DNA of 42,513 nt from positions 1 through 42,513 of the IMG/VR virus record IMGVR_UViG_3300029240_000023; one strand, written 5' to 3'. The stretch's first letter is position 1, and each line of letters begins with the position of its first letter. Source of the stretch: a virus. This document shows, piece after piece, positions 1,450 through 42,513 of this stretch. Below the pieces are notes generated by a model. That model ran no database searches. It was not told the DNA's origin and saw only the letters and a list, made by a program, of their open reading frames with translations. Both the position numbers and the translations under genes were made by a program.

Positions 1450-1577
1450 ATAGTCGCAAAGTCGCAGCCGAAAATTCCCGTTTCATAGTCGCAGAAAGTC
1501 GCCCCGAAAGTCGCAAGACCTCCGGGGCGTTTTTATAGTCGCTATAGTCGCTGGGTCAAAGTCGCTGTTATAGTCGC
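1450..1577 (+). repeat. Array of nine same-orientation 8-mers A[T/A]AGTCGC
   Basis: ATAGTCGC at 1450, 1485, 1535, 1544, 1570. AAAGTCGC at 1458, 1495, 1507, 1558. A tenth ATAGTCGC lies at 1811 inside terS. Confidence 0.9.
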
Positions 1578-13393: not shown

Positions 13394-13570
13394 TCACCTC
13401 CTGTCGTGGTTTTTGTGGACTACGTCGAAAAGCTCCACGTTCTCATCGTCAAACGCCTTGCTTTCCTTCGATTCCATCAAAAGGGATTCCCGCAAATGCT
13501 CATTTTCCCGGCGCAACCGGCGGTTCATCTCCGCCATGGTGCGAAGCTGGGCAACCTCATTCGGCATCAT
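13394..13570 (-). CDS. Small coiled-coil protein, 58 aa (MMPNEVAQLRTMAEMNRRLRRENEHL...)
   Basis: Hand translation; ATGA overlap with the stop of 13567..14178. Confidence 0.45.
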   Translation of the reverse strand: MMPNEVAQLRTMAEMNRRLRRENEHLRESLLMESKESKAFDDENVELFDVVHKNHDRR

Positions 13571-14590: not shown

Positions 14591-14607
14591 TTGACTGCGG
14601 CGGAAAG
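14591..14607. repeat. 17-bp inverted repeat, left copy TTGACTGCGGCGGAAAG
   Basis: Exact reverse complement present at 14911..14927. Confidence 0.9.
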
Positions 14608-14619
14608 GTTCGCTATAAT
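14591..14619 (+). promoter_or_regulatory. Consensus sigma70 promoter P1, rightward
   Basis: TTGACT (14591-14596), 17-nt spacer, TATAAT (14614-14619). Confidence 0.65.
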
Positions 14620-14662: not shown

Positions 14663-14722
14663 ATGTCCAACAAACTTTTGTTACCGCCAGTACCGAACCA
14701 CGAAGGTGGCGTGATGCGTTAG
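14663..14722 (+). CDS. Possible 19-aa leader or micropeptide MSNKLLLPPVPNHEGGVMR
   Basis: ATG 7 nt after GAGGAGG, inside the P1 transcript. Confidence 0.3.
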   Translation: MSNKLLLPPVPNHEGGVMR

Positions 14723-14874
14723 GGCGAGGGGCAGAACCGAAACTGCCAAAGTGAAACGGTGCGTCAAGGACGCAGGTTTGGTCTGCTGTTGAAAGTAAAG
14801 CGGGAATCTAGGGTTTCTCGCCGTTTAGGAATACGGACTTCCAACGCAGCGCATTTCGGCAAATAAATTTGGGG

Positions 14875-14915
14875 AAAATTCACTCGTGACCAAACCACGG
14901 GTGAATTTTTCTTTC
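14875..14915. terminator. Bidirectional rho-independent terminator in the switch region
   Basis: AAAATTCAC/GTGAATTTT outer stem plus CGTG/CACG inner stem, flanked by A-run and T-run. Confidence 0.65.
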
Positions 14916-15873: not shown

Positions 15874-16503
15874 ATGGAAAAACGGAAAATAATACAACAA
15901 ATATCGACGATTTGTGATAATCTGCCCGCAAAGATGAAATGGGCAAAGGAGGAACAGCACAAAACCAATCAGCAGATTATCGACAGCACAGGGCTAAGTG
16001 AATCCATGGTTAAAAAGTTTTTCTCCGGCCACCTGACGGGCCCAAGTATCTATGATGTGACCGCCATTGCCATTGACCTTGATCTGTCCCTGGATGAGCT
16101 GATGGAGCTGTCCCCGCCGAAGCAAGACCAGAGCGCGGAAATCGAACGGCTGAAAACCGAAATTTCGCACAAGGAAGAACTTATCTCGGAAAAAGATAAC
16201 GCCATCTCCCGGCTGGAAGAGCGCAGCCACATGATGGATAAAGAAATATCCGCCGTCCGGCATAACTGGAAGCATGTGACTTATGGAGCCGCGGGGCTTG
16301 CGGCTCTGTTCGGCATCTTCCTTATGGTATATGTCTTTCTGGATATGCGAAACCCGAGCCTTGGTCTGTTCCAGTCCGGCCACACCGAGCCGATCGTTTA
16401 TGTCGCGGCCTTTTCCATTATCGGAACATGCCTGTATATCGTCCGAACTGTGATAAAACGAAACACAAAAAGGGGGAAACACGATGCAAACAATACCAAT
16501 TGA
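15874..16503 (+). CDS. Membrane-anchored XRE-like HTH protein (HTH + coiled coil + 2 TM)
   Basis: TNQQIIDSTGLSESMVKKFFSG HTH; two C-terminal hydrophobic helices; overlaps the integrase start by 20 nt. Confidence 0.7.
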   Translation: MEKRKIIQQISTICDNLPAKMKWAKEEQHKTNQQIIDSTGLSESMVKKFFSGHLTGPSIYDVTAIAIDLDLSLDELMELSPPKQDQSAEIERLKTEISHKEELISEKDNAISRLEERSHMMDKEISAVRHNWKHVTYGAAGLAALFGIFLMVYVFLDMRNPSLGLFQSGHTEPIVYVAAFSIIGTCLYIVRTVIKRNTKRGKHDANNTN

Positions 16504-18145
16504 TCTATCGGCTCTTACGCCGGAGGAAAGACAGCAGTTTGCGGATAATCCCTCCGTTCTTTCATCGGACTGCGAGGCGGTCTGCTGCCTGTATATGCGC
16601 TACAGCTCCGACCGGCAGACAGAGCAGTCCATCGAAGGGCAGCTCCGGGAGCTGATAGCCTATTGCAAGCACCACAGCTATCGGGTTGCCGCCATTTATG
16701 TTGACCGGGCGATTTCCGCCCACGCAAGCATGGACAAGCGGCCAGCGTTCCAGCAGATGCTTGCTGACAGCGCCAGATCGTCATGGAAAACCGTTTTGGT
16801 TTACAAACTGGACAGATTTGCCCGGAACAGGGAAGACAGCGCCATTGCCCGCATGCGGCTCCGTAAGAACGGCTGCAACGTGGAATCCGCGAAAGAGGGC
16901 ATTTCCAAGAACCCCGAGGGTGTGATTCTGGAAGCCCTGCTGGAAGGTATGGCGGAATATTATTCTCTAGAGCTGTCCCAGAAGGTACGTCGCGGCATGA
17001 GCGAAACAGCCAGAAAAGGGAACAGTACAGGCGGCACTACACCGCTAGGATACACTGTCGTAGACAAGCGCCTGCAAATCGACCCCATGACTGCCCATTT
17101 GGTGGAGGAAGCATTTCGCCGGTATGCAGACGGCGATACCGTGGCCGCGATCTGCGACGATTTCAACGCCCGCGGATACCGGACAACGCGGGGAACGAAA
17201 TTCAACAAGTCCAGTTTTAAGAACGTGTTCCGGAACGAAAAATATATCGGGGTTTACAAGTTTGACGATGTTCGCACAGACAACGCCGTCCCCAGAATTA
17301 TATCCGATGAGCTTTGGCGGGCTGTACAATCCAGACTGAAAGCCAGCGAGCAAGCCCCAGCTAGAGGTAAGGCGAAGGTGCCGTATCTTTTGTCGGGGAA
17401 AATTTTCTGCGGTCACTGCGGCGCTCCCATGGTGGGAGAGTGCGGCAGAGGAAAAGGCGGGAAGACTTACAATTATTATTCCTGCGCCAATAGAAAGAAG
17501 GCCCGCTTATGCGACAAAAAGCCAGTCCCGAAGGACTGGCTGGAAGATGTGGTGGCTCAGGACGCTCTTGACGTACTGACAGACGAAATTATCGAATTTG
17601 TGGCAGAAGTAGCCGCCCAGCAGTCAGAGGAAGACATTCAGAAGAATACACAGATTCCGGTCATACGCAAAAAGATTTCTGAAATTGAAAATAAAATCCG
17701 CAATCTGACGAAAGCACTTGAATGTGCTTCCGTTGCGCCGGACGCTATTGTGGAAAGGCTTGCCGAATTAGAAGCCCAGAAAAAGGGACTGTCTACACAA
17801 CTATCCGATGAAGAACGCGGCGTGATTCCGCTCACAAAGGAATCTGTCGTGGTTTATCTGAAAGCGGTAAGGGAAAATGCGGTTCCGCTGGAAACCCAGA
17901 AAGCCATGCTTATTGAAATGCTTGTAAATTCCGTCACCGTTTACGATGACGAGCCGGGATTCCTGAAATTTGTGACCGCCTACCGGCTGACGCAGATCCC
18001 ATCAAAGACATACCGCGTTCCTACTCCGGCAGTATCCCCGTGTTCGGATATAGGGCGCGTTGGGTCACCATTGGACGCAAATCCGAACACAATTACCGTT
18101 GTGGGAATGGTTTTCATCCAAACCAGAAGACACGCCCTGCCTTAA
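16484..18145 (+). CDS. int: Large serine recombinase (phage integrase)
   Basis: Resolvase catalytic domain YMRYSSDRQ, recombinase domain, zinc ribbon CGHCG...YYSC...LCD, and coiled-coil region. Confidence 0.9.
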   Translation: MQTIPIDLSALTPEERQQFADNPSVLSSDCEAVCCLYMRYSSDRQTEQSIEGQLRELIAYCKHHSYRVAAIYVDRAISAHASMDKRPAFQQMLADSARSSWKTVLVYKLDRFARNREDSAIARMRLRKNGCNVESAKEGISKNPEGVILEALLEGMAEYYSLELSQKVRRGMSETARKGNSTGGTTPLGYTVVDKRLQIDPMTAHLVEEAFRRYADGDTVAAICDDFNARGYRTTRGTKFNKSSFKNVFRNEKYIGVYKFDDVRTDNAVPRIISDELWRAVQSRLKASEQAPARGKAKVPYLLSGKIFCGHCGAPMVGECGRGKGGKTYNYYSCANRKKARLCDKKPVPKDWLEDVVAQDALDVLTDEIIEFVAEVAAQQSEEDIQKNTQIPVIRKKISEIENKIRNLTKALECASVAPDAIVERLAELEAQKKGLSTQLSDEERGVIPLTKESVVVYLKAVRENAVPLETQKAMLIEMLVNSVTVYDDEPGFLKFVTAYRLTQIPSKTYRVPTPAVSPCSDIGRVGSPLDANPNTITVVGMVFIQTRRHALP

Positions 18146-19549: not shown

Positions 19550-19592
19550 AAAAAACCAGGCGAACGAATCATCATCGTTTCGCCTGGTTTTC
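19550..19592. terminator. Bidirectional terminator between the HTH gene and the moron
   Basis: CCAGGCGAACGA / TCGTTTCGCCTGG stem flanked by an A-run and a T-run. Confidence 0.65.
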
Positions 19593-31434: not shown

Positions 31435-31869
31435 TCAGGTCGCGTCGTCCAGCTCAATGGGCGTGGACGGGGCAATGGAAATGTTCAGGTCTACAACCTC
31501 GTTGACGCCGCCGCCGGTGGGGTAGCAAGTCAGCTGACCATCGAACTTGAACTTGCCGTCAGAGCCGGTAGGGGTCAGGTTCGTGCCGTCACCGGTTCCG
31601 CCGAACCACACAGCGTAGCTCTCGGTCTTTCCGTTGAGAGCCACCAGCTTCTTGTAGTCATCCAAGGTGTAGTTCGCCGTGAAGGAGAGGGCATCCAAGG
31701 ACTGGATACCGGCGATGTAGGTCTGCATCTTGTCAGACAGGGTAGTGGTTTCCAGCATCTCCGGATCGCCGCCCAGATCAGGGAATTCCTTGATGTCAAT
31801 GAGCTTTTCGTAGGTGTTGCCGGTGGTTCCCTTTTTCATCAGGAAAACTTTATACGTGCTTATGGCCAT
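31435..31869 (-). CDS. Major tail protein (TP901-1-like)
   Basis: Size, position and beta-rich sequence upstream of the chaperone gene. Confidence 0.75.
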   Translation of the reverse strand: MAISTYKVFLMKKGTTGNTYEKLIDIKEFPDLGGDPEMLETTTLSDKMQTYIAGIQSLDALSFTANYTLDDYKKLVALNGKTESYAVWFGGTGDGTNLTPTGSDGKFKFDGQLTCYPTGGGVNEVVDLNISIAPSTPIELDDAT

Positions 31870-31890: not shown

Positions 31891-31952
31891 AATAAAAACG
31901 GGCTGCCTCCTGTGAAGCAGCCCTTCGGCTCTCTTTCCGCCCTTGCGGAAAG
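31891..31952 (-). promoter_or_regulatory. Three-hairpin RNA element, copy A, 5' of the major tail gene
   Basis: H1 31933-31940/31945-31952. H2 31919-31922/31927-31930. H3 31900-31906/31917-31923 plus a T-run. Shares AGCCCTTCGGCT with copies B and C. Confidence 0.6.
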
Positions 31953-31963
31953 GTAAAGCATAT

Positions 31964-32365
31964 TTACCTGCGGTAAATTGTTCCGCCGTCCGTCTCCGCC
32001 CGATACCGGGCTACCAGACGGTAAATCGTCCCGTTTTCCATATTCGGAACAGGGGACAACGAAATTCGCGTGAAATTCCGTTTGTAGAGCATTTCGTCTA
32101 TAACGCCCATAATCTCCCGGCATACGCTTTTCTTGCTTCCTGCCTTGTCGGAGTACACATTGACTTCGTACATCAGCGTTGAGAACTTTTCCCGGTCGCT
32201 GCTGTCCAGCCTGTTCGCGGACATATAATTGTCCTGCTCTACGATGCTTACATAGGGGAATTTTGGAGGAGCGTTCACATATTCGCCGGATACCGCAATG
32301 CCCTTGAAGCGCTTTCGCAGAGCCTCGGCAATGGGGGTATAGATCAGCTTTTCAATATCAGTCAA
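31964..32365 (-). CDS. Tail completion / terminator-like protein, 133 aa
   Basis: Position in the head-tail joining block. Confidence 0.6.
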   Translation of the reverse strand: MTDIEKLIYTPIAEALRKRFKGIAVSGEYVNAPPKFPYVSIVEQDNYMSANRLDSSDREKFSTLMYEVNVYSDKAGSKKSVCREIMGVIDEMLYKRNFTRISLSPVPNMENGTIYRLVARYRAETDGGTIYRR

Positions 32366-35987: not shown

Positions 35988-36061
35988 TGGTTGCGGCAGA
36001 AAGAATCGAACTTCCATTACATGGGTCAAAACCATGTGCCTTACTTTTTGGCTATGCCGCA
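35988..36061 (-). tRNA. tRNA-Gln (TTG) with encoded CCA
   Basis: Hand-folded: acceptor TGCGGCA/TGCCGCA, anticodon stem CATGG/CCATG with loop TTTTGAC, T-arm GGAAG-TTCGATT-CTTTC. Confidence 0.7.
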
Positions 36062-36065
36062 GTGT

Positions 36066-36137
36066 AAAAAAAGAAGGGCTTCCAATACCATTTCTGGTAT
36101 CAGAAGCCCTTCGGCTGTTCGCTGCTCCCTAGAGCAG
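36066..36137 (-). promoter_or_regulatory. Three-hairpin RNA element, copy C, 5' of the tRNA / capsid unit
   Basis: H1 36122-36127/36132-36137. H2 36105-36108/36113-36116. H3 36073-36082/36103-36112 plus a T7 run. Confidence 0.6.
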
Positions 36138-36199
36138 TCACAAATTATACCATTTGGTGTGGCTCTTCCGCGAAAGGTGCGGCGCTCTTTGCCAAACAG

Positions 36200-36349
36200 T
36201 CAGTTAACCTTCTTGCGCCGAATCTCAATGACCACGATCTGGCCTTGTTCGACTTTGATTTCCGCCTGATTCCGGCGGTGGATGATTTCCTCAATCGCCC
36301 GAATTTCCTTCGCCGTCACTCTGACCGCCGGTCTGGTTTCCGCTTCCAT
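36200..36349 (-). CDS. Possible 49-aa ORF overlapping the portal 3' end (MEAETRPAVRVTAKEIRAIEEIIHRRNQAEIKVEQGQIVVIEIRRKKVN)
   Basis: Hand translation; ATG 6 nt after GGAGGGA. Confidence 0.35.
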   Translation of the reverse strand: MEAETRPAVRVTAKEIRAIEEIIHRRNQAEIKVEQGQIVVIEIRRKKVN

Positions 36350-37745
36350 CGCCGTTCCCTCCGTTCTGCGCGGCAAGCTTCGCCGCTTTTTTCTCCTGCT
36401 CGGCCATGTAATCCATGCTCATTCGGTAGGCCAACTGCGGGTCGGAAAATAACCCGCAATGTGTAAATGCCAGTTCAGGGGCGATCTTCTCGCAAGCAAG
36501 CATCTGGGTTAGAACCGTTGATTTCTGCGCGATATTCTCATAATTCCGCCGCGTGAACCGGATTTCCAGTGCCGATAGTTTCAGGCTCAGATGCCCCATG
36601 TCCCGGCAGATACGCAGCACCAGCTTCAAAAATTCCTTTTCGGACTTCTTGAAAATCAGCTCCGTGTCCTTGGCTCTGGCTTCCGCTGCCGACCAGCCGT
36701 CCCGCATGATGACCGCTGATCCGGTGTCAGAGGTAGAAGTCCCTCCGTTCCGGTTTGGCATTCCGCAGATTGTCAGCACCGTTTCATACATGCTGTCCAC
36801 AAGGGTCTGCGTCTGGGTCTGGTTCATTTCGGAGGTCAGATATTGAATCTCCGCTTTCAGTGTGGCGTCAATATCCCTGAACTTGATTGCGCCCTCGTCC
36901 CGCAGTTTCTTGTAGTCCTCGCTGCTGATGTCAACATTATGGAACAGCATCAGTGCTTGAACGAACTGCTCTACGCCGTCAATTCGGTTGCTCTCCGTCA
37001 TGTTGATTGCGTCAAGCAACGGAATCACGATTTCAAATGCTCCTAAACGAGCCATGTTCGCCGGGTACTCCACAATCGGGATTCCCAAAATCTGATCTTC
37101 TGCGCGAATAACAGCCCATGTGTTCCAGACCTCGAAATACCTGGTTTCTGTCCAACAGGAGAAAACGAGCGTTCCGTCCTCTTTTAGAACATACCGTACA
37201 CCCATCATAGGCTTATGTCCAAGCCCTACAGAGTACACCACGAATGCGTATCTTGGGTCAAGAGTGAAGATTTCAAAGGGCGCTTCGTCTTCTTCCACAT
37301 CGGCCAGAACGTCCGGCAAAGTCATTCGATAAGAGGTACCGCAAGTGAAGAGCCAATCGGCAAGTTCCTTATCCTTTTCCGGCTTGTCTTCGGACAGCAT
37401 ATAGTCATTCAGTTTCAGCACTTCGGAGGAAATGTCTTCGTCCCCGCCACGGCTTACGTACTGGATTGGTTCGCCGACCTGATAGGCCGATTTGAAAGAT
37501 ACGATCTCATTTGCTCGGTTCTCCACAACCATGTTGTTGATTTCCGGGCGGACTTCCTTTACGCGGTTAAGGATTGGCTGCTCTCCCTTGTAATACCAGT
37601 ACAGGTAATCAATCTCTGCCTGATTTTGCAGGTGCGTAAACAGTGCCTTTTGTAGCACGTCGATGATATTCCCCTCGTTTATATCCGTAACCTCGGTGTA
37701 AATTACCCGACGCCCGAATAACCGCCTGCTCTCCGTATTACGCAC
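36291..37745 (-). CDS. Portal protein (SPP1 gp6-like)
   Basis: Size, position after terL, and YLYWYYKGEQPILNR N-terminal motif. The GTG start is uncertain. Confidence 0.85.
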   Translation of the reverse strand: MRNTESRRLFGRRVIYTEVTDINEGNIIDVLQKALFTHLQNQAEIDYLYWYYKGEQPILNRVKEVRPEINNMVVENRANEIVSFKSAYQVGEPIQYVSRGGDEDISSEVLKLNDYMLSEDKPEKDKELADWLFTCGTSYRMTLPDVLADVEEDEAPFEIFTLDPRYAFVVYSVGLGHKPMMGVRYVLKEDGTLVFSCWTETRYFEVWNTWAVIRAEDQILGIPIVEYPANMARLGAFEIVIPLLDAINMTESNRIDGVEQFVQALMLFHNVDISSEDYKKLRDEGAIKFRDIDATLKAEIQYLTSEMNQTQTQTLVDSMYETVLTICGMPNRNGGTSTSDTGSAVIMRDGWSAAEARAKDTELIFKKSEKEFLKLVLRICRDMGHLSLKLSALEIRFTRRNYENIAQKSTVLTQMLACEKIAPELAFTHCGLFSDPQLAYRMSMDYMAEQEKKAAKLAAQNGGNGDGSGNQTGGQSDGEGNSGD

Positions 37746-37844: not shown

Positions 37845-39491
37845 CTAAAACGGCCTGCTGAAAACCTCTATAACCGCCCCGTTTAAGCTTTGGGCAAACT
37901 CAGCAAACATAGCCATTCCGTCTGGAACGTCATCGTGCTTATTCTTTCCCGCTACAGTGTAGGAACATAGCATATCCATCATCCTGCCGTAATCCGTGTT
38001 CCGCTTATACTTGCTTTCATCCAGAAACAGGCAGTGTTCCTTCACCCACGCCGAATTTACAATGATCTTTGTCTCTTTATTTGCCGTGGTGAACTTCGTC
38101 GTGATGTTTGTGATGCCACCCAGTTTCTTCACTTCGTTCTGAATCTTTTCAGCGACCCGGCGGCCAGCGGAGTTACTTTCAAACCGGCACATTTTCACCT
38201 TGTCCCGCACCAGAATTTCAGACAGTCTTGCATCAACTGTGTCAGGAAGCCCATTGTCGCAGATACAGTCCCCGATATAGTAGTCCTGCCCATATACATA
38301 TCCAACCGGCAGGAAGGCGTAGTCAGCGCCCTTGTCCTTGGTATCGCACACGCCGATAATGGCATCTGGTTCCTCTGCTGGCAGCTCAAAGAACCGCCGC
38401 AGTTCGTCAGGATGGTAGACAAGCCCCTCGCGTTCAATGGGTTGATTCTGATACAGCGCTTTCCAACTGACGCTATCCATAATATCCCGCTGTTCCCGGT
38501 AGAACTTGGTGGAGAACCCCACGCCAAACTCATAATCAAAATTGCTTTCGTCATCCTCGTTCATGGCCGGAATCCGAATGAATTTCGCCCGGGGGTTGTT
38601 CTCATATTCCCGTTCCAGCCGCCCGATCACATCATGCACGCTCCACCGGGTAGCAATATGAAGCTCTTTGCATTTGTCACCGATTTTACGCTGCCGCAGG
38701 TCGGTGGTGTAAGTCTCCCACAGCTTGTCCAGCCGCTCTTTGGATAGCGCGACCTCAATACCAGATACCAGATCGTCGCAGTACAGCAGGTTTGCCGCCC
38801 GGTACAGACCGGCATTTCCCGTTCCTATGGAGGTAAATTCCAGCGTTTCAAATCGCTGACGCTTATCAAGGTCAATTCGGCAGTCCTTTGCGTTGGTGCT
38901 GGACACCTGAACGGCAGGGAAGACATCATGCCATAGATATTCCCCCTTTGAGTCAAACAGCCGCAGACATTCGTCATACACGCCCCGCACAAAGGAATTG
39001 GAGTGGCTGCCCGTCAGATTCGGGTTGTTTGGGTCGCGTCCGGCAATCCAGGTCAGCAGGAAGATTGCAAGCGTGGTCTTTCCTACGCCGGGGGGCAAAC
39101 TAACCGCCAGCAAATCCAGCTTGTCATCCCCGCACAGCGCTTGCAGCGCGTCCACCACGGGCTTTAGCTGCTTCTTCCGTGGCTGATAAAACCGCTTTTT
39201 CGCCTGCCTGTCCAGCTCCATATAGGTGAGATAGCTGTCAAAGTCATATGGAGCCTCAAACAATAGCCCCCGCCGCCAAAGGCTGTAGAACCCCTCCACC
39301 TGAGACATGGGCACTTTATCCATCATTCGGTCGCACATATCCTTCAATTGTTTATTCGCCCGATGTGCCGCCGTGAAATCAGTCTCAGCCCATGCCTGAC
39401 ACAGGGAAAACAGGTCTTCGTATGCCCCGATATCACCCGGTCTGTTCTCGATAGCCCTCAGAATGGAGGTTGACAATTTCTCATAATCCAT
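37845..39491 (-). CDS. terL: Terminase large subunit
   Basis: Walker A SLPPGVGKTT, Walker B LLYCDDLVSG, and a C-terminal nuclease-like domain. Confidence 0.9.
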   Translation of the reverse strand: MDYEKLSTSILRAIENRPGDIGAYEDLFSLCQAWAETDFTAAHRANKQLKDMCDRMMDKVPMSQVEGFYSLWRRGLLFEAPYDFDSYLTYMELDRQAKKRFYQPRKKQLKPVVDALQALCGDDKLDLLAVSLPPGVGKTTLAIFLLTWIAGRDPNNPNLTGSHSNSFVRGVYDECLRLFDSKGEYLWHDVFPAVQVSSTNAKDCRIDLDKRQRFETLEFTSIGTGNAGLYRAANLLYCDDLVSGIEVALSKERLDKLWETYTTDLRQRKIGDKCKELHIATRWSVHDVIGRLEREYENNPRAKFIRIPAMNEDDESNFDYEFGVGFSTKFYREQRDIMDSVSWKALYQNQPIEREGLVYHPDELRRFFELPAEEPDAIIGVCDTKDKGADYAFLPVGYVYGQDYYIGDCICDNGLPDTVDARLSEILVRDKVKMCRFESNSAGRRVAEKIQNEVKKLGGITNITTKFTTANKETKIIVNSAWVKEHCLFLDESKYKRNTDYGRMMDMLCSYTVAGKNKHDDVPDGMAMFAEFAQSLNGAVIEVFSRPF

Positions 39492-39500
39492 ACTCTCACC

Positions 39501-39833
39501 TCACAGAGCGTCCGCTTGTTCAAATGCTTTCAGCAGTTTTGGAAACTGGATTGCGAAGAAATCCACCATTTCCTCGTTCTGCGCCCAGTAAGAGTTTTCA
39601 GCAAGGCCGCTTTCAAATAGAAATGCGTGAATGATCTCATGCCGCTTCACCTTGTTTGTCTGAGCCGGAAGGTTTTGCTTGCAATTTGGTTCCCACTTGC
39701 TGTCTTCGTAATTTTCGACCAGCATTTCTTTCGTAGTTTCATCACAGAAACCGTCACAATCCTTGAGCCTTGGCTCTTTGCTTCCCCGAATTACTGTAAG
39801 CGTATATTCTGCTCCCAAAACGTCGATTTTCAT
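39501..39833 (-). CDS. HExxH-motif protein (putative zinc metallopeptidase-like), 110 aa
   Basis: KRHEIIHAFLFESGL motif; ATG after GGAGGGAATTT. Confidence 0.65.
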   Translation of the reverse strand: MKIDVLGAEYTLTVIRGSKEPRLKDCDGFCDETTKEMLVENYEDSKWEPNCKQNLPAQTNKVKRHEIIHAFLFESGLAENSYWAQNEEMVDFFAIQFPKLLKAFEQADAL

Positions 39834-39850: not shown

Positions 39851-39921
39851 AAAAATAAGGGCTGCCCGTGCGTATCTCAGCACAAGCAGCCCTTCGGCTG
39901 TCCTCCCGCCCTTGCGGGAGG
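39851..39921 (-). promoter_or_regulatory. Three-hairpin RNA element, copy B, 5' of the HExxH-terL unit
   Basis: H1 39902-39909/39914-39921. H2 39887-39891/39896-39900. H3 39859-39865/39886-39892 plus a T-run. Confidence 0.6.
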
Positions 39922-40826: not shown

Positions 40827-41603
40827 TTATTCCTCCTTCAAAATCGGTTCGTGCTGACCTTTTACCCATTCAGCGTCCTTATTAGACCGCTTTCCGTAGC
40901 GATAGAACCCTTGGTAAACTTTCTTGTTTTCATAGATCGTCTGAACCGTGCTGATAATAAACGGCTTCCCGCTTTTGTTCAGTTTCCCGGCACGGTTTAG
41001 TGCATCTGTCACATCTCGATATGTCATGCCTTCGGCATCTTTCATCCTAAAGATTTCACGAACTGTTTCTGCTTCCTCCGGAACAATGACCATTTGGCGG
41101 TTTTCTGCTCTGTACCCGTAAGGTGTCCTGCCGCCGCTATAGCCGCCACTAGCCGACTTAACAGCACGACCGCCGCTTGTTCTCTTGGTGATATTGTTTC
41201 GCTCCTGCTCTGCCACAAACAGCATGAGAGCCTTGTAGACATTTCCTAAGCCGGTATCGTCATTGACTACTTCCTCTGTTGCACTGATTAGCTTCATTCC
41301 ACGCTTTTCAAGCAGCATCATAAAGTAATAGTACAACTTGATGTCTCTTGCCATTCTGTCAGACTTCGCAACGACCACGGCCTCAATAGGCGGATTCTTC
41401 ATTTCTCCGTAAAGGATGGCATCAAGCTGAGGCCGGTTTTCTTTTACGCCGCTTTCGCCCTTATCCACGAACCACTCAGATACCATCATATCATGGCTAT
41501 CACAGTAGCTTGTGATAAGCTCCTTCTGCGCTTCGATTCCAAACTTATCGCCCATAGCCTGAGCATCGGTGCTAACTCTCACATAAGCAATGACATTCTT
41601 CAT
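40827..41603 (-). CDS. Short serine recombinase: resolvase catalytic domain plus recombinase domain, without zinc ribbon or coiled coil
   Basis: AYVRVSTDAQ catalytic Ser; E-helix ERNNITKRTSGG; TPYGYR...IVPEEAETVREIF; ends at GQHEPILKEE. Confidence 0.8.
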   Translation of the reverse strand: MKNVIAYVRVSTDAQAMGDKFGIEAQKELITSYCDSHDMMVSEWFVDKGESGVKENRPQLDAILYGEMKNPPIEAVVVAKSDRMARDIKLYYYFMMLLEKRGMKLISATEEVVNDDTGLGNVYKALMLFVAEQERNNITKRTSGGRAVKSASGGYSGGRTPYGYRAENRQMVIVPEEAETVREIFRMKDAEGMTYRDVTDALNRAGKLNKSGKPFIISTVQTIYENKKVYQGFYRYGKRSNKDAEWVKGQHEPILKEE

Positions 41604-41632: not shown

Positions 41633-41661
41633 ATATTACCATAATTACGGCATGAAGTCAA
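41633..41661 (-). promoter_or_regulatory. Promoter of the recombinase operon
   Basis: Minus strand: TTGACT (41661-41656), 17-nt spacer, TAATAT (41638-41633). Bracketed by TTACGG (41645-41650) / CCGTAA (41664-41669). Confidence 0.55.
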
Positions 41662-41858: not shown

Positions 41859-42250
41859 CGTGGAACCCACCGTCCGCGTCGAGTTTCCTGGCTTGCCATA
41901 GCCTATCTCCTTTGTAGACGGTGTACGGTTAAAAAGACGGTTGCCTGTCATCCCGCGAGTGCGGAATGGAGGCGTGTGTATAGCCCTCGCGGGAAATTTA
42001 TTTCTCATGGAGGTGACCATACATAACTCTTCAAGATGTTTTCTGGATTGTGTCTATCTGCTGGATTCTCGTCCAAGCGTGGGACAAGTTCCATAACAGA
42101 AAGAAGTGAGCCGTCTGTTCACAGCAGAACGGCTCACGGTTGTTTGAGCGCTAAGCTCTCGACCTACTAACTTGTATGCTCGTGGCAACCGTCTGGGTTC
42201 CCACCGCAGGGGACATCTGTTACCAGCAGGTGTTCCCTGTGTTATTATTA
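41859..42250 (+). ncRNA. Unclassified structured non-coding RNA, about 390 nt
   Basis: No credible ORF or SD. Stacked long-range helices 41860-41869/42194-42204 and 41936-41945/42184-42193. Several internal hairpins. Terminator stem 42207-42219/42227-42239 with two G-U pairs. Confidence 0.55.
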
Positions 42251-42414
42251 TAGACCTTTACAGAAGCGTTGTCAAATAATTTTTTAATAACTTTTTTAGA
42301 TTTTTCCCACATTCCCAATCTTTCAAGACTTCCGTTTGGAGGTCTTTTTTTCTTTTTCGGGATTTTTCGAGAAGGGAAGGAAGCCTTTTTGGCTGAAATC
42401 TATTTGGGGGGCTT

Positions 42415-42513
42415 ACCGCGCGGAAATGCCCGGGCGCATATCCCCCGCCCCCGGTGCTATCCGGCAGCAGCCGGAACCGCTGAACAGTGCCGGACAGCCC
42501 AACCCCTGAACTG
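42415..42513. repeat. Terminal direct repeat copy 2, identical to 1..99
   Basis: Read directly: 99/99 identical bases at both window ends. Confidence 0.95.

Follow-up and report, generated by a model that had tools for sequence, protein, structure and literature searches.

The late operon of a temperate siphophage of Oscillospiraceae contains, at three of its gene junctions, copies of a conserved RNA element made up of two small hairpins (H1 and H2) and an intrinsic terminator (H3), whose 5' arm includes the 3' arm of H2. Our preferred reading, to which we assign a probability of roughly 0.45, is that these elements are factor-dependent terminator/antiterminator switches with a logic like that of the ANTAR targets in the eut operon.

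Results

The phage genome

The window that we analysed, 42,513 nucleotides in length, is a complete circular assembly of about 42.4 kb. Its two ends (1-99 and 42415-42513) are an exact direct repeat of 99 bp, from which it follows that the assembly closes into a circle and represents the entire phage genome. Nearly all genes are carried by the minus strand. The early block on this strand encodes a YqaJ exonuclease, RecT, SSB, a G39P-like loader and a PAPS reductase, and ends with terS (1783-2331). After the early block comes a variable accessory region, and beyond it the late block, whose genes are ordered as follows: the phrog_1233 protein, terL, portal, tRNA-Gln, tRNA-Asn, scaffold, major head protein, connectors, tail terminator, major tail protein, tape measure and other tail genes. 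The gene context described in the first-pass annotation is borne out, in that PHROGs and Pfam identify terL, portal, major head, tail terminator and major tail proteins, and two tRNAs are present. The plus strand carries a serine integrase and an HTH repressor.

The nearest genomes belong to Oscillospiraceae and include the isolate Dysosmobacter segnis BX15, a cultured strain that harbours a related prophage with the element. We found no close cultured phage. Members of this phage family are very common in metagenomes of the human gut.

The genome has several further features apart from the element. Besides the 553-aa integrase (16484-18145, plus strand), there is a 258-aa serine-recombinase-like protein in the accessory region (40827-41603, minus strand), which has resolvase and recombinase domains without a zinc ribbon; homologues of this protein occupy the same gap between terS and terL in 11 of 21 distant relatives. 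A FuFi-1 RNA (Rfam RF02986, 86.4 bits) lies at 14705-14910 on the plus strand, with its own sigma-70-like promoter at 14591-14619 (plus strand). It is antisense to the early leftward transcript from a promoter-like site (15129->15101, minus strand), and may be a cis-antisense regulator of the early genes. The motif GCGACTWT occurs nine times within 130 nt (1450-1577, minus strand), just downstream of terS and a 72-aa zinc-ribbon ORF, and 11 times in the whole window, compared with 2.2 expected; the cluster is a candidate pac or TerS-binding array. At 42098-42275 on the minus strand, a perfect consensus promoter leads into about 145 nt of structured non-coding sequence with a terminator-like hairpin at its end (fold z = -2.9), a candidate small RNA. 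Finally, a conserved hairpin, GGAGGCCGUGCUAUAAUAGCGGUGCCUCC, followed by a terminator (GCGCUCCCGG...GGGGGCGC U5), is found at about 186-270 on the minus strand, antisense to the 5' end of the plus-strand gene 285-680, and also in dozens of related loci; we regard it as a candidate antisense RNA.

Table 1. Coordinates of the three elements, of the neighbouring late genes and of the candidate promoters upstream of site 3. All positions refer to the window.
Feature	Coordinates	Strand	Description
Candidate feeding promoter (inferred)	42247..42275	-	TTGACA-17-TATAAT, 12/12 consensus match
Candidate feeding promoter (inferred) of the accessory operon ending at the site 3 terminator	41633..41661	-	near-consensus sigma-70
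Site 3 H1	39902..39921	-	CCUCCCGC-AAGG-GCGGGAGG; begins 14 nt past the upstream ORF stop codon
Site 3 H2	39888..39899	-	AGCC-GAAG-GGCU; the 12-mer; candidate antiterminator stem
Site 3 H3	39857..39894	-	15-bp intrinsic terminator hairpin; 5' arm has GGCU and loop bases of H2
Site 3 U-run	39851..39856	-	AUUUUU; phrog_1233 gene ATG at 39833, then terL
terL	37845-39491	-	PHROGs and Pfam
Portal	36291-37745	-	PHROGs and Pfam
Site 2 H1	36122..36137	-	CUGCUC-UAGG-GAGCAG; 62 nt past the upstream stop codon
Site 2 H2	36105..36116	-	AGCC-GAAG-GGCU
Site 2 H3	36073..36112	-	18-bp terminator hairpin overlapping H2
Site 2 U-run	36066..36072	-	U7; tRNA-Gln starts at 36061, 4 nt on
Tail terminator	31964-32365	-	PHROGs and Pfam
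Site 1 H1	31933..31952	-	CUUUCCGC-AAGG-GCGGAAAG; begins 11 nt past the tail-terminator stop codon
Site 1 H2	31919..31930	-	AGCC-GAAG-GGCU
Site 1 H3	31900..31923	-	10-bp terminator hairpin overlapping H2
Site 1 U-run	31894..31898	-	U5 after one G; major tail protein ATG at 31869
Major tail protein	31435-31869	-	PHROGs and Pfam

A three-part element at late gene junctions

The 12-mer AGCCCTTCGGCT (in plus-strand notation) has exact copies at 31919, 36105 and 39888, as the first-pass annotation had reported, and there is no further copy in the window even when one mismatch is allowed. In shuffled sequences the mean number of copies is 0.28, and none of 100 shuffles reaches three. The common architecture that had been described for the three sites is likewise present at each of them: on the transcribed minus strand we find, in this order, H1, a linker of 2-5 nt, AGCC GAAG GGCU (H2), H3 and a U-run (Table 1). 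The GGCU of H2, together with one to four bases of the H2 loop, forms part of the 5' arm of H3 at all three sites, so that the overlap between the two hairpins also stands.

Each H3 has the properties of an intrinsic terminator, namely a GC-rich stem of 10-18 bp followed by U5-U7, and the three H3 hairpins are the top three minus-strand terminator matches in the region 24-42.5 kb. The next feature begins very soon after the U-run: 17 nt separate it from the phrog_1233 ATG at site 3, 4 nt from tRNA-Gln at site 2, and 24 nt from the major tail ATG at site 1. Since spacers of 4-24 nt leave room for a ribosome-binding site only, the transcripts of terL, portal, capsid and tail genes must cross these terminators. 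The late region closes with two more terminator-like hairpins (19556-19587 and 17520-17541, minus strand), and these are plain, with neither H1 nor AGCC. The special form is thus tied to those internal stops that need passage.

Transcription from upstream of site 3

Two candidate promoters are directed toward site 3 (Table 1), and the only minus-strand hairpins between them and site 3 are weaker terminator-like ones at 42125-42110 and 40103-40086. Upstream of site 3, the interval from terS to terL is occupied in all relatives by a variable accessory region of about 4 kb. Given that near-consensus accessory promoters run toward it, site 3 is at least an insulator between the accessory and the late genes.

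This insulating role is one point in favour of a simpler explanation, according to which the three elements are constitutive, factor-independent attenuators or insulators with a fixed leak. H2 would then slow the closure of the terminator base, and H1 would insulate the fold from upstream coding RNA. Three serial stops would filter out stray transcription, for example from the accessory promoters in a lysogen, and a strong late promoter would push polymerase through. Such serial leaks, however, would make transcript levels fall from terL and portal to capsid to tail, and the copy numbers of the corresponding virion proteins run in the opposite direction. We consider leaky attenuation an unlikely account of the elements, if one to be taken seriously, and we return to it below where other evidence bears on it.

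Folding and energetics

The minimum-energy folds of sites 1, 2 and 3 consist of H1 and H3, with energies of -32.8, -39.7 and -45.9 kcal/mol and fold z-scores of -5.4, -7.7 and -7.4, respectively. H2, by comparison, is a stem of 4 bp (5 at site 3) worth -5.1 kcal/mol. Its probability in the equilibrium ensemble is 0, and enforcing it costs 8.0, 13.6 and 10.4 kcal/mol at sites 1, 2 and 3. As the terminator state is more stable by 8-14 kcal/mol, termination is the default, and H2 depends on a factor to stabilise it.

A permissive scan found comparable 4-bp pairing beside 156 of 294 terminator-like hairpins. Because such pairings are common by chance, and because H2 is absent at equilibrium, the support for H2 comes from its conservation and not from any single sequence. 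During transcription, the nascent RNA has the H2 structure for as long as the 3' arm of H3 is still to be made; this temporal order is compatible with leaky attenuation too. Release at intrinsic terminators needs the bottom stem pairs next to the U-run, and C(GAAG)G is listed among the unusually stable tetraloops. The form of H2, with its C(GAAG)G loop, fits that of a purpose-built mini-hairpin.

Conservation and covariation among relatives

We gathered 162 related loci through their portal protein (74-100% identity). The element is found before terL in 143 of 148 loci, after portal in 139 of 156, and before the major tail gene in 58 of 130; in 69 of the latter 130 loci the flanking genes abut without a site 1 element. 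With site 1 missing in about half of the relatives, the copy at the tail genes is dispensable, which fits leaky attenuation. The first-pass annotation had held that its reading would suffer if relatives kept the flanking genes and lost the overlap between H2 and H3. The overlap is kept wherever the element exists; at site 1, on the other hand, the genes are kept in those 69 loci and the element as a whole is gone. The orientation is always that of the coding strand and the gene junctions are always the same, and the element also occurs in Oscillospiraceae genomes.

From these loci we parsed 97 distinct copies, 95 of them with a terminator. The sequence of H1 has turned over almost freely, with 42 different 5' arms among the 97 copies, and yet all of them are paired. 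In an alignment of 30 sequences, all 8 pairs of H1 show changes on both sides, and 95.4% of the H1 cells are paired, compared with 74.5% after shuffling and 44-54% when the partner is slid. The linker between H1 and H2 measures 0-5 nt in 96 of 97 copies, GAC and AAC being the commonest. The H1 loop is AAGG in 53 of 97 copies and UAGG in 8; a hexaloop occurs in only 7 copies, 5 of which fit A1/G4. H3 is represented by 57 distinct sequences with compensatory changes and a variable upper stem, and has a mean dG of -25 kcal/mol over 95 copies; one set of H3 sequences was chosen for pairing, so that only its covariation counts.

Against this background of change the arms of H2 stand almost still. 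AGCC:GGCU is present in 91 of 97 copies, and AGCC...GGGCU is essentially invariant. Pairing is kept in all six variants, which are AGCU (U.G) in four copies, GGCC (G.U) in one and GACC:GGUC in one; the last of these (L201) is weakened as a clean compensatory event, because AGCC persists just upstream. As far as the alignments go, then, the evidence for pairing in H2 is invariance together with very few independent variants. In every one of the 95 copies with a terminator, the whole 3' arm of H2, four bases long, is paired within H3.

The H2 loop itself takes 14 forms of 4-6 nt (GAAG, GAGG, GAUG, GUGG, AAGG, AAAGG, AUUACG, AUAACG, ACUACG and others), which we group into GNNG tetraloops, ANNACG hexaloops and A-rich loops. 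The class of the loop is the same across the sites of one genome in 259 of 263 site pairs, and a few genomes mix classes. Examples are GAAG/GAAG/GAAG, AUAACG/AUUACG and AAAGG/AAAAGG, where H1 and the upper stem of H3 differ between the sites. This concordance points to either a shared trans-acting reader or concerted evolution; it is expected if a single genome-specific factor reads all of the sites. Leaky attenuation leaves it unexplained, and the near-invariance of AGCC and constant presence of H1, amid turnover of linker, loop and stem, seem to require more than folding hygiene.

Three copies (L044:745-1225, L043:7780-8260 and L257:4770-5260) consist of H1 and H2 without a terminator. In these, H1 and AGCC-loop-GGCU run into ACAUUUGAAAGGAGG and a 98-aa ORF, after which a complete element precedes terL. 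The unit with the 98-aa ORF has the appearance of a gene cassette that entered through recombination at the conserved core.

That H1 and H2 can stand before an inserted gene without a terminator is also what one might see if the element were a module for RNA processing or stability. A host endonuclease would cut the single-stranded linker or AGCC, H1 would shield the upstream mRNA at its 3' end, transcripts would be stabilised by H3 or the terminator end, and the mRNAs of the modules would differ in half-life. The position of H1, 11-14 nt past the stop codons at sites 1 and 3 (62 nt at site 2), resembles that of a 3' stabiliser, and processing of the tRNAs is required right after site 2. A processing module does not explain, however, why AGCC is complementary to the base of the terminator, or why the full terminator with its U-run is kept; we see no long duplex of the RNase III type, no known cleavage motif, and no sign of cleavage in the data. 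We therefore judge this explanation to be very improbable.

Distribution of the element

The element is confined to one clade. It is absent from MT835537 (73% portal identity), Clostridium phage Maintenon (42%) and Dulem virus 39, and so these deeper relatives provide no further covariation for H2. A search for portal homologues returned only relatives with at least 76% identity. When IMG/VR was scanned for the exact core (AGCCGAAGGGCT + N8-36 + GCCC), about 100 of 120 stretches had no H1/terminator architecture, and the architecture occurred in the same phage family only.

A covariance model, R1, built from 15 gap-free copies, recovered sites 3 and 1 in full and the H2 part only of site 2; the model is too sequence-specific, and its search of the window gave no further copy above noise. 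In Rfam 15, nothing matches the three sites at the gathering score, and at E≤10 there is only a chance match to ctRNA_p42d, with 18 bits compared with a gathering score of 50. This agrees with the first-pass annotation, which had recognised no named motif of this form. Nor did we find, in the literature searched, any paper on the core sequence in this context. As an RNA motif the element is new; its logic is of a known kind.

An RNA element rather than a DNA site or a mobile repeat

The reading of the repeats as a DNA operator or promoter was considered and rejected. The sequences of H1 are fully different from one another and are nonetheless paired, the spacer between the half-sites AGCC and GGCT varies from 4 to 6 nt, and there is no conserved -10 or -35 upstream. 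Sequence turnover with kept pairing, variable half-site spacing and constant orientation together argue against a dimeric DNA site or a promoter; a loop of 4-6 nt between fixed half-sites fits an RNA hairpin instead.

An extended -10, TGGTATAAT, is present at W-type site 2 only (36148-36156, minus strand), 6 nt upstream of H1, and it is kept in the closest subgroup only. A transcript from this promoter would start with H1-H2-H3, in the manner of lambda 6S RNA. The idea of promoters hidden in the terminators was rejected as well: the sole match is a weak one at site 1, TTCACA-N16-TATTAC, which is not common to the other sites. A dispersed repeat similar to MITE or REP sequences was rejected on the grounds that every copy has the orientation of the coding strand and occupies one of the same three gene junctions, and that exact-core matches elsewhere lack the architecture.

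Comparison with known systems

The E. faecalis eut operon has four internal terminators, each behind two small hairpins, and a conserved 13-mer, AGCAANGRRGCUY, that overlaps the 5' arm of the terminator; ANTAR recognition requires each hairpin to have a hexaloop in which position 1 is A and position 4 is G (PMC3369931). Our element shares with the ANTAR/EutV system (and with the NasR and AmiR leaders) several terminators, each preceded by two small hairpins, and here these are 0-5 nt apart in 96 of 97 copies. In both cases termination is the default and the 3' half of the second hairpin lies in the 5' arm of the terminator, as it does in all 95 of our copies with a terminator. Even the core sequences are alike, since AGCAANGRRGCUY and AGCCGAAGGGCUK both read AGC...GCU with six bases between.

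The loops, by contrast, are different: H1 and H2 have mostly tetraloops (AAGG and GAAG) in place of A1/G4 hexaloops, and those hexaloops that H2 does have (AUUACG, AUAACG and ACUACG) carry A at position 4 and so lack G4. Moreover, ANTAR systems control metabolic operons, whereas the element belongs to a phage late operon in which no ANTAR protein was found among the approximately 60 ORFs scanned. By analogy, we conclude that the element would work like an ANTAR target but should not be classed as one.

Two further systems share part of the proposed logic. The RAT sequences of BglG, SacY and LicT share with the logic proposed for our element a protein-stabilised hairpin over the 5' arm of a terminator, and default termination. 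But RAT is a single imperfect hairpin of 29-30 nt with conserved internal loops, whereas our element has a separate second hairpin upstream, and the CAT/PRD protein that RAT systems use is not present here. In lambda (PR', tR', Q), as here, late genes past constitutive-looking promoters are shut off by a terminator, the morphogenesis genes need read-through, and a small GC stem has a purine-rich loop. Lambda Q, however, acts via DNA at the promoter, and N acts processively from a promoter-proximal nut, whereas the cis element described here is repeated at, and overlaps, every terminator; we found neither a Q or N homologue nor a boxA in our phage.

In lambda, N is recruited by boxB, and in HK022 the put sequence acts directly on RNA polymerase. 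A nut site of the lambda type lies close to the promoter and has boxA followed by a boxB hairpin with a GNRA-like pentaloop, and the N protein is rich in arginine. The nutL boxB of lambda is GCCCU-GAAGA-AGGGC. It is conceivable that H1 and/or H2 act in a comparable way, as nut- or put-like elements that recruit a factor or act on polymerase for processive antitermination, and that the overlap between H2 and H3 is incidental. Two small stem-loops do lie immediately upstream of the terminators, H2 (GCC-GAAG-GGC) resembles the nutL boxB, and a 58-aa arginine-rich ORF (13394-13570) is found in the early operon. H2 has a GAAG tetraloop and not a pentaloop, and there is no match to the N family. For processive action one loading site suffices, whereas here every terminator has its own copy attached, and 95 of 95 copies preserve the overlap with the terminator arm. 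No boxA-like element was seen beside H1/H2, no N, Q or NusG paralogue was detected, and there is no Rfam match. We consider processive antitermination quite improbable. HK022 put and the RNAs of conjugative elements such as Tn916 (PMC11658703) have in common with our element, as we read it, two stem-loops that, in the nascent RNA of a mobile element, permit passage of terminators; unlike our element, they act processively on polymerase, do not overlap the terminator, and occur in single copy near the promoter.

The search for a trans-acting factor

Among about 60 candidate ORFs, compared with Pfam and, for subsets, with PHROGs or NCBIfam, we found no ANTAR, sigma, Q, N, NusG-like or RNA-binding antiterminator protein. 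The ANTAR domain PF03861 in particular has no match in these roughly 60 phage ORFs, which include a minority of the tail and lysis-region ORFs. With respect to a trans-acting RNA, no copy complementary to the core was found outside the sites, and none in FuFi-1 or the two candidate small RNAs. The first-pass annotation had suggested a conditional terminator or an antitermination target. This suggestion stands insofar as the element is a conserved, oriented RNA module through which transcription must read; the antiterminator protein or RNA that it implies did not appear in our searches, and H2 alone cannot compete with H3. That the scans yielded no regulator is, again, as leaky attenuation would have it.

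The early regions of W-type and L062-type phages, both of which bear the motif, have almost no proteins in common. A conserved early factor is therefore unlikely, leaving a late-module protein, a host factor or no factor. One late-module ORF stands out, a basic ORF of 49 aa (36349->36200, minus strand) with the Shine-Dalgarno sequence GGAGGG, which overlaps the last 59 nt of portal in another frame. Every relative has it immediately before site 2, and no other small non-structural candidate close to the sites is universal; members of the hexaloop subgroup have its stop codon within H1. An identical 49-aa protein is found on about 600 contigs. It has no family match, a Foldseek search of its model against the PDB gave nothing below E = 2, and the AlphaFold model (pLDDT 70) shows a helix and a beta-hairpin. 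We regard this protein as a candidate for the factor, a lead by position only.

Discussion

Our preferred reading, a factor-dependent switch at each terminator, may be pictured as follows. By default, the nascent RNA would fold into H1 and the strong H3, and polymerase would halt at three places: ahead of terL, ahead of the block with the tRNAs, scaffold and capsid, and ahead of the gene for the major tail protein. The conserved AGCC precedes the terminator by 4-6 nt. It can pair with GGCU at the foot of the 5' arm of the terminator, and the resulting H2 would be made first during transcription. A dimeric or bipartite RNA-binding factor would probably hold H2 together with the adjacent H1, and H2 held in this way would block the bottom 5-9 bp of the terminator beside the U-run, resulting in read-through. 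Thus one trans-acting factor would gate late-gene expression at each module boundary. Among the observations that speak against this reading are the lack of site 1 in about half of the relatives, the three copies without a terminator and the few genomes with mixed loop classes.

A more specific version of this proposal, rather unlikely in our estimate, is that an abundant clade of Oscillospiraceae phages has its late operon gated by a previously undescribed system, in which a small factor without a known RNA-binding domain binds H1 and AGCC-loop-GGCU at each boundary and pries open the base of the terminator. This factor might be a host protein; or it might be the universal 49-aa protein encoded upstream of site 2, in which case positive feedback would produce an all-or-none late switch. 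Should a factor system of this kind exist, the concordance of H2 loop classes would represent co-evolution between the factor and its targets.

The element is abundant, cleanly defined and, by virtue of the cultured BX15, experimentally accessible. If it is factor-dependent, there is a new antiterminator to be found along with the new RNA motif, and the switch would also yield a compact, modular terminator/antiterminator part for Clostridia. If it is unregulated, it offers a clean case of insulating terminators that keep accessory ('moron') transcription out of the lethal late genes. What is known of late control in the temperate phages that infect Gram-positive gut anaerobes concerns mainly DNA-binding activators such as RinA, ArpU and LtrC. 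The element described here suggests a checkpoint at the level of RNA, based on terminators and repeated at each morphogenesis module.
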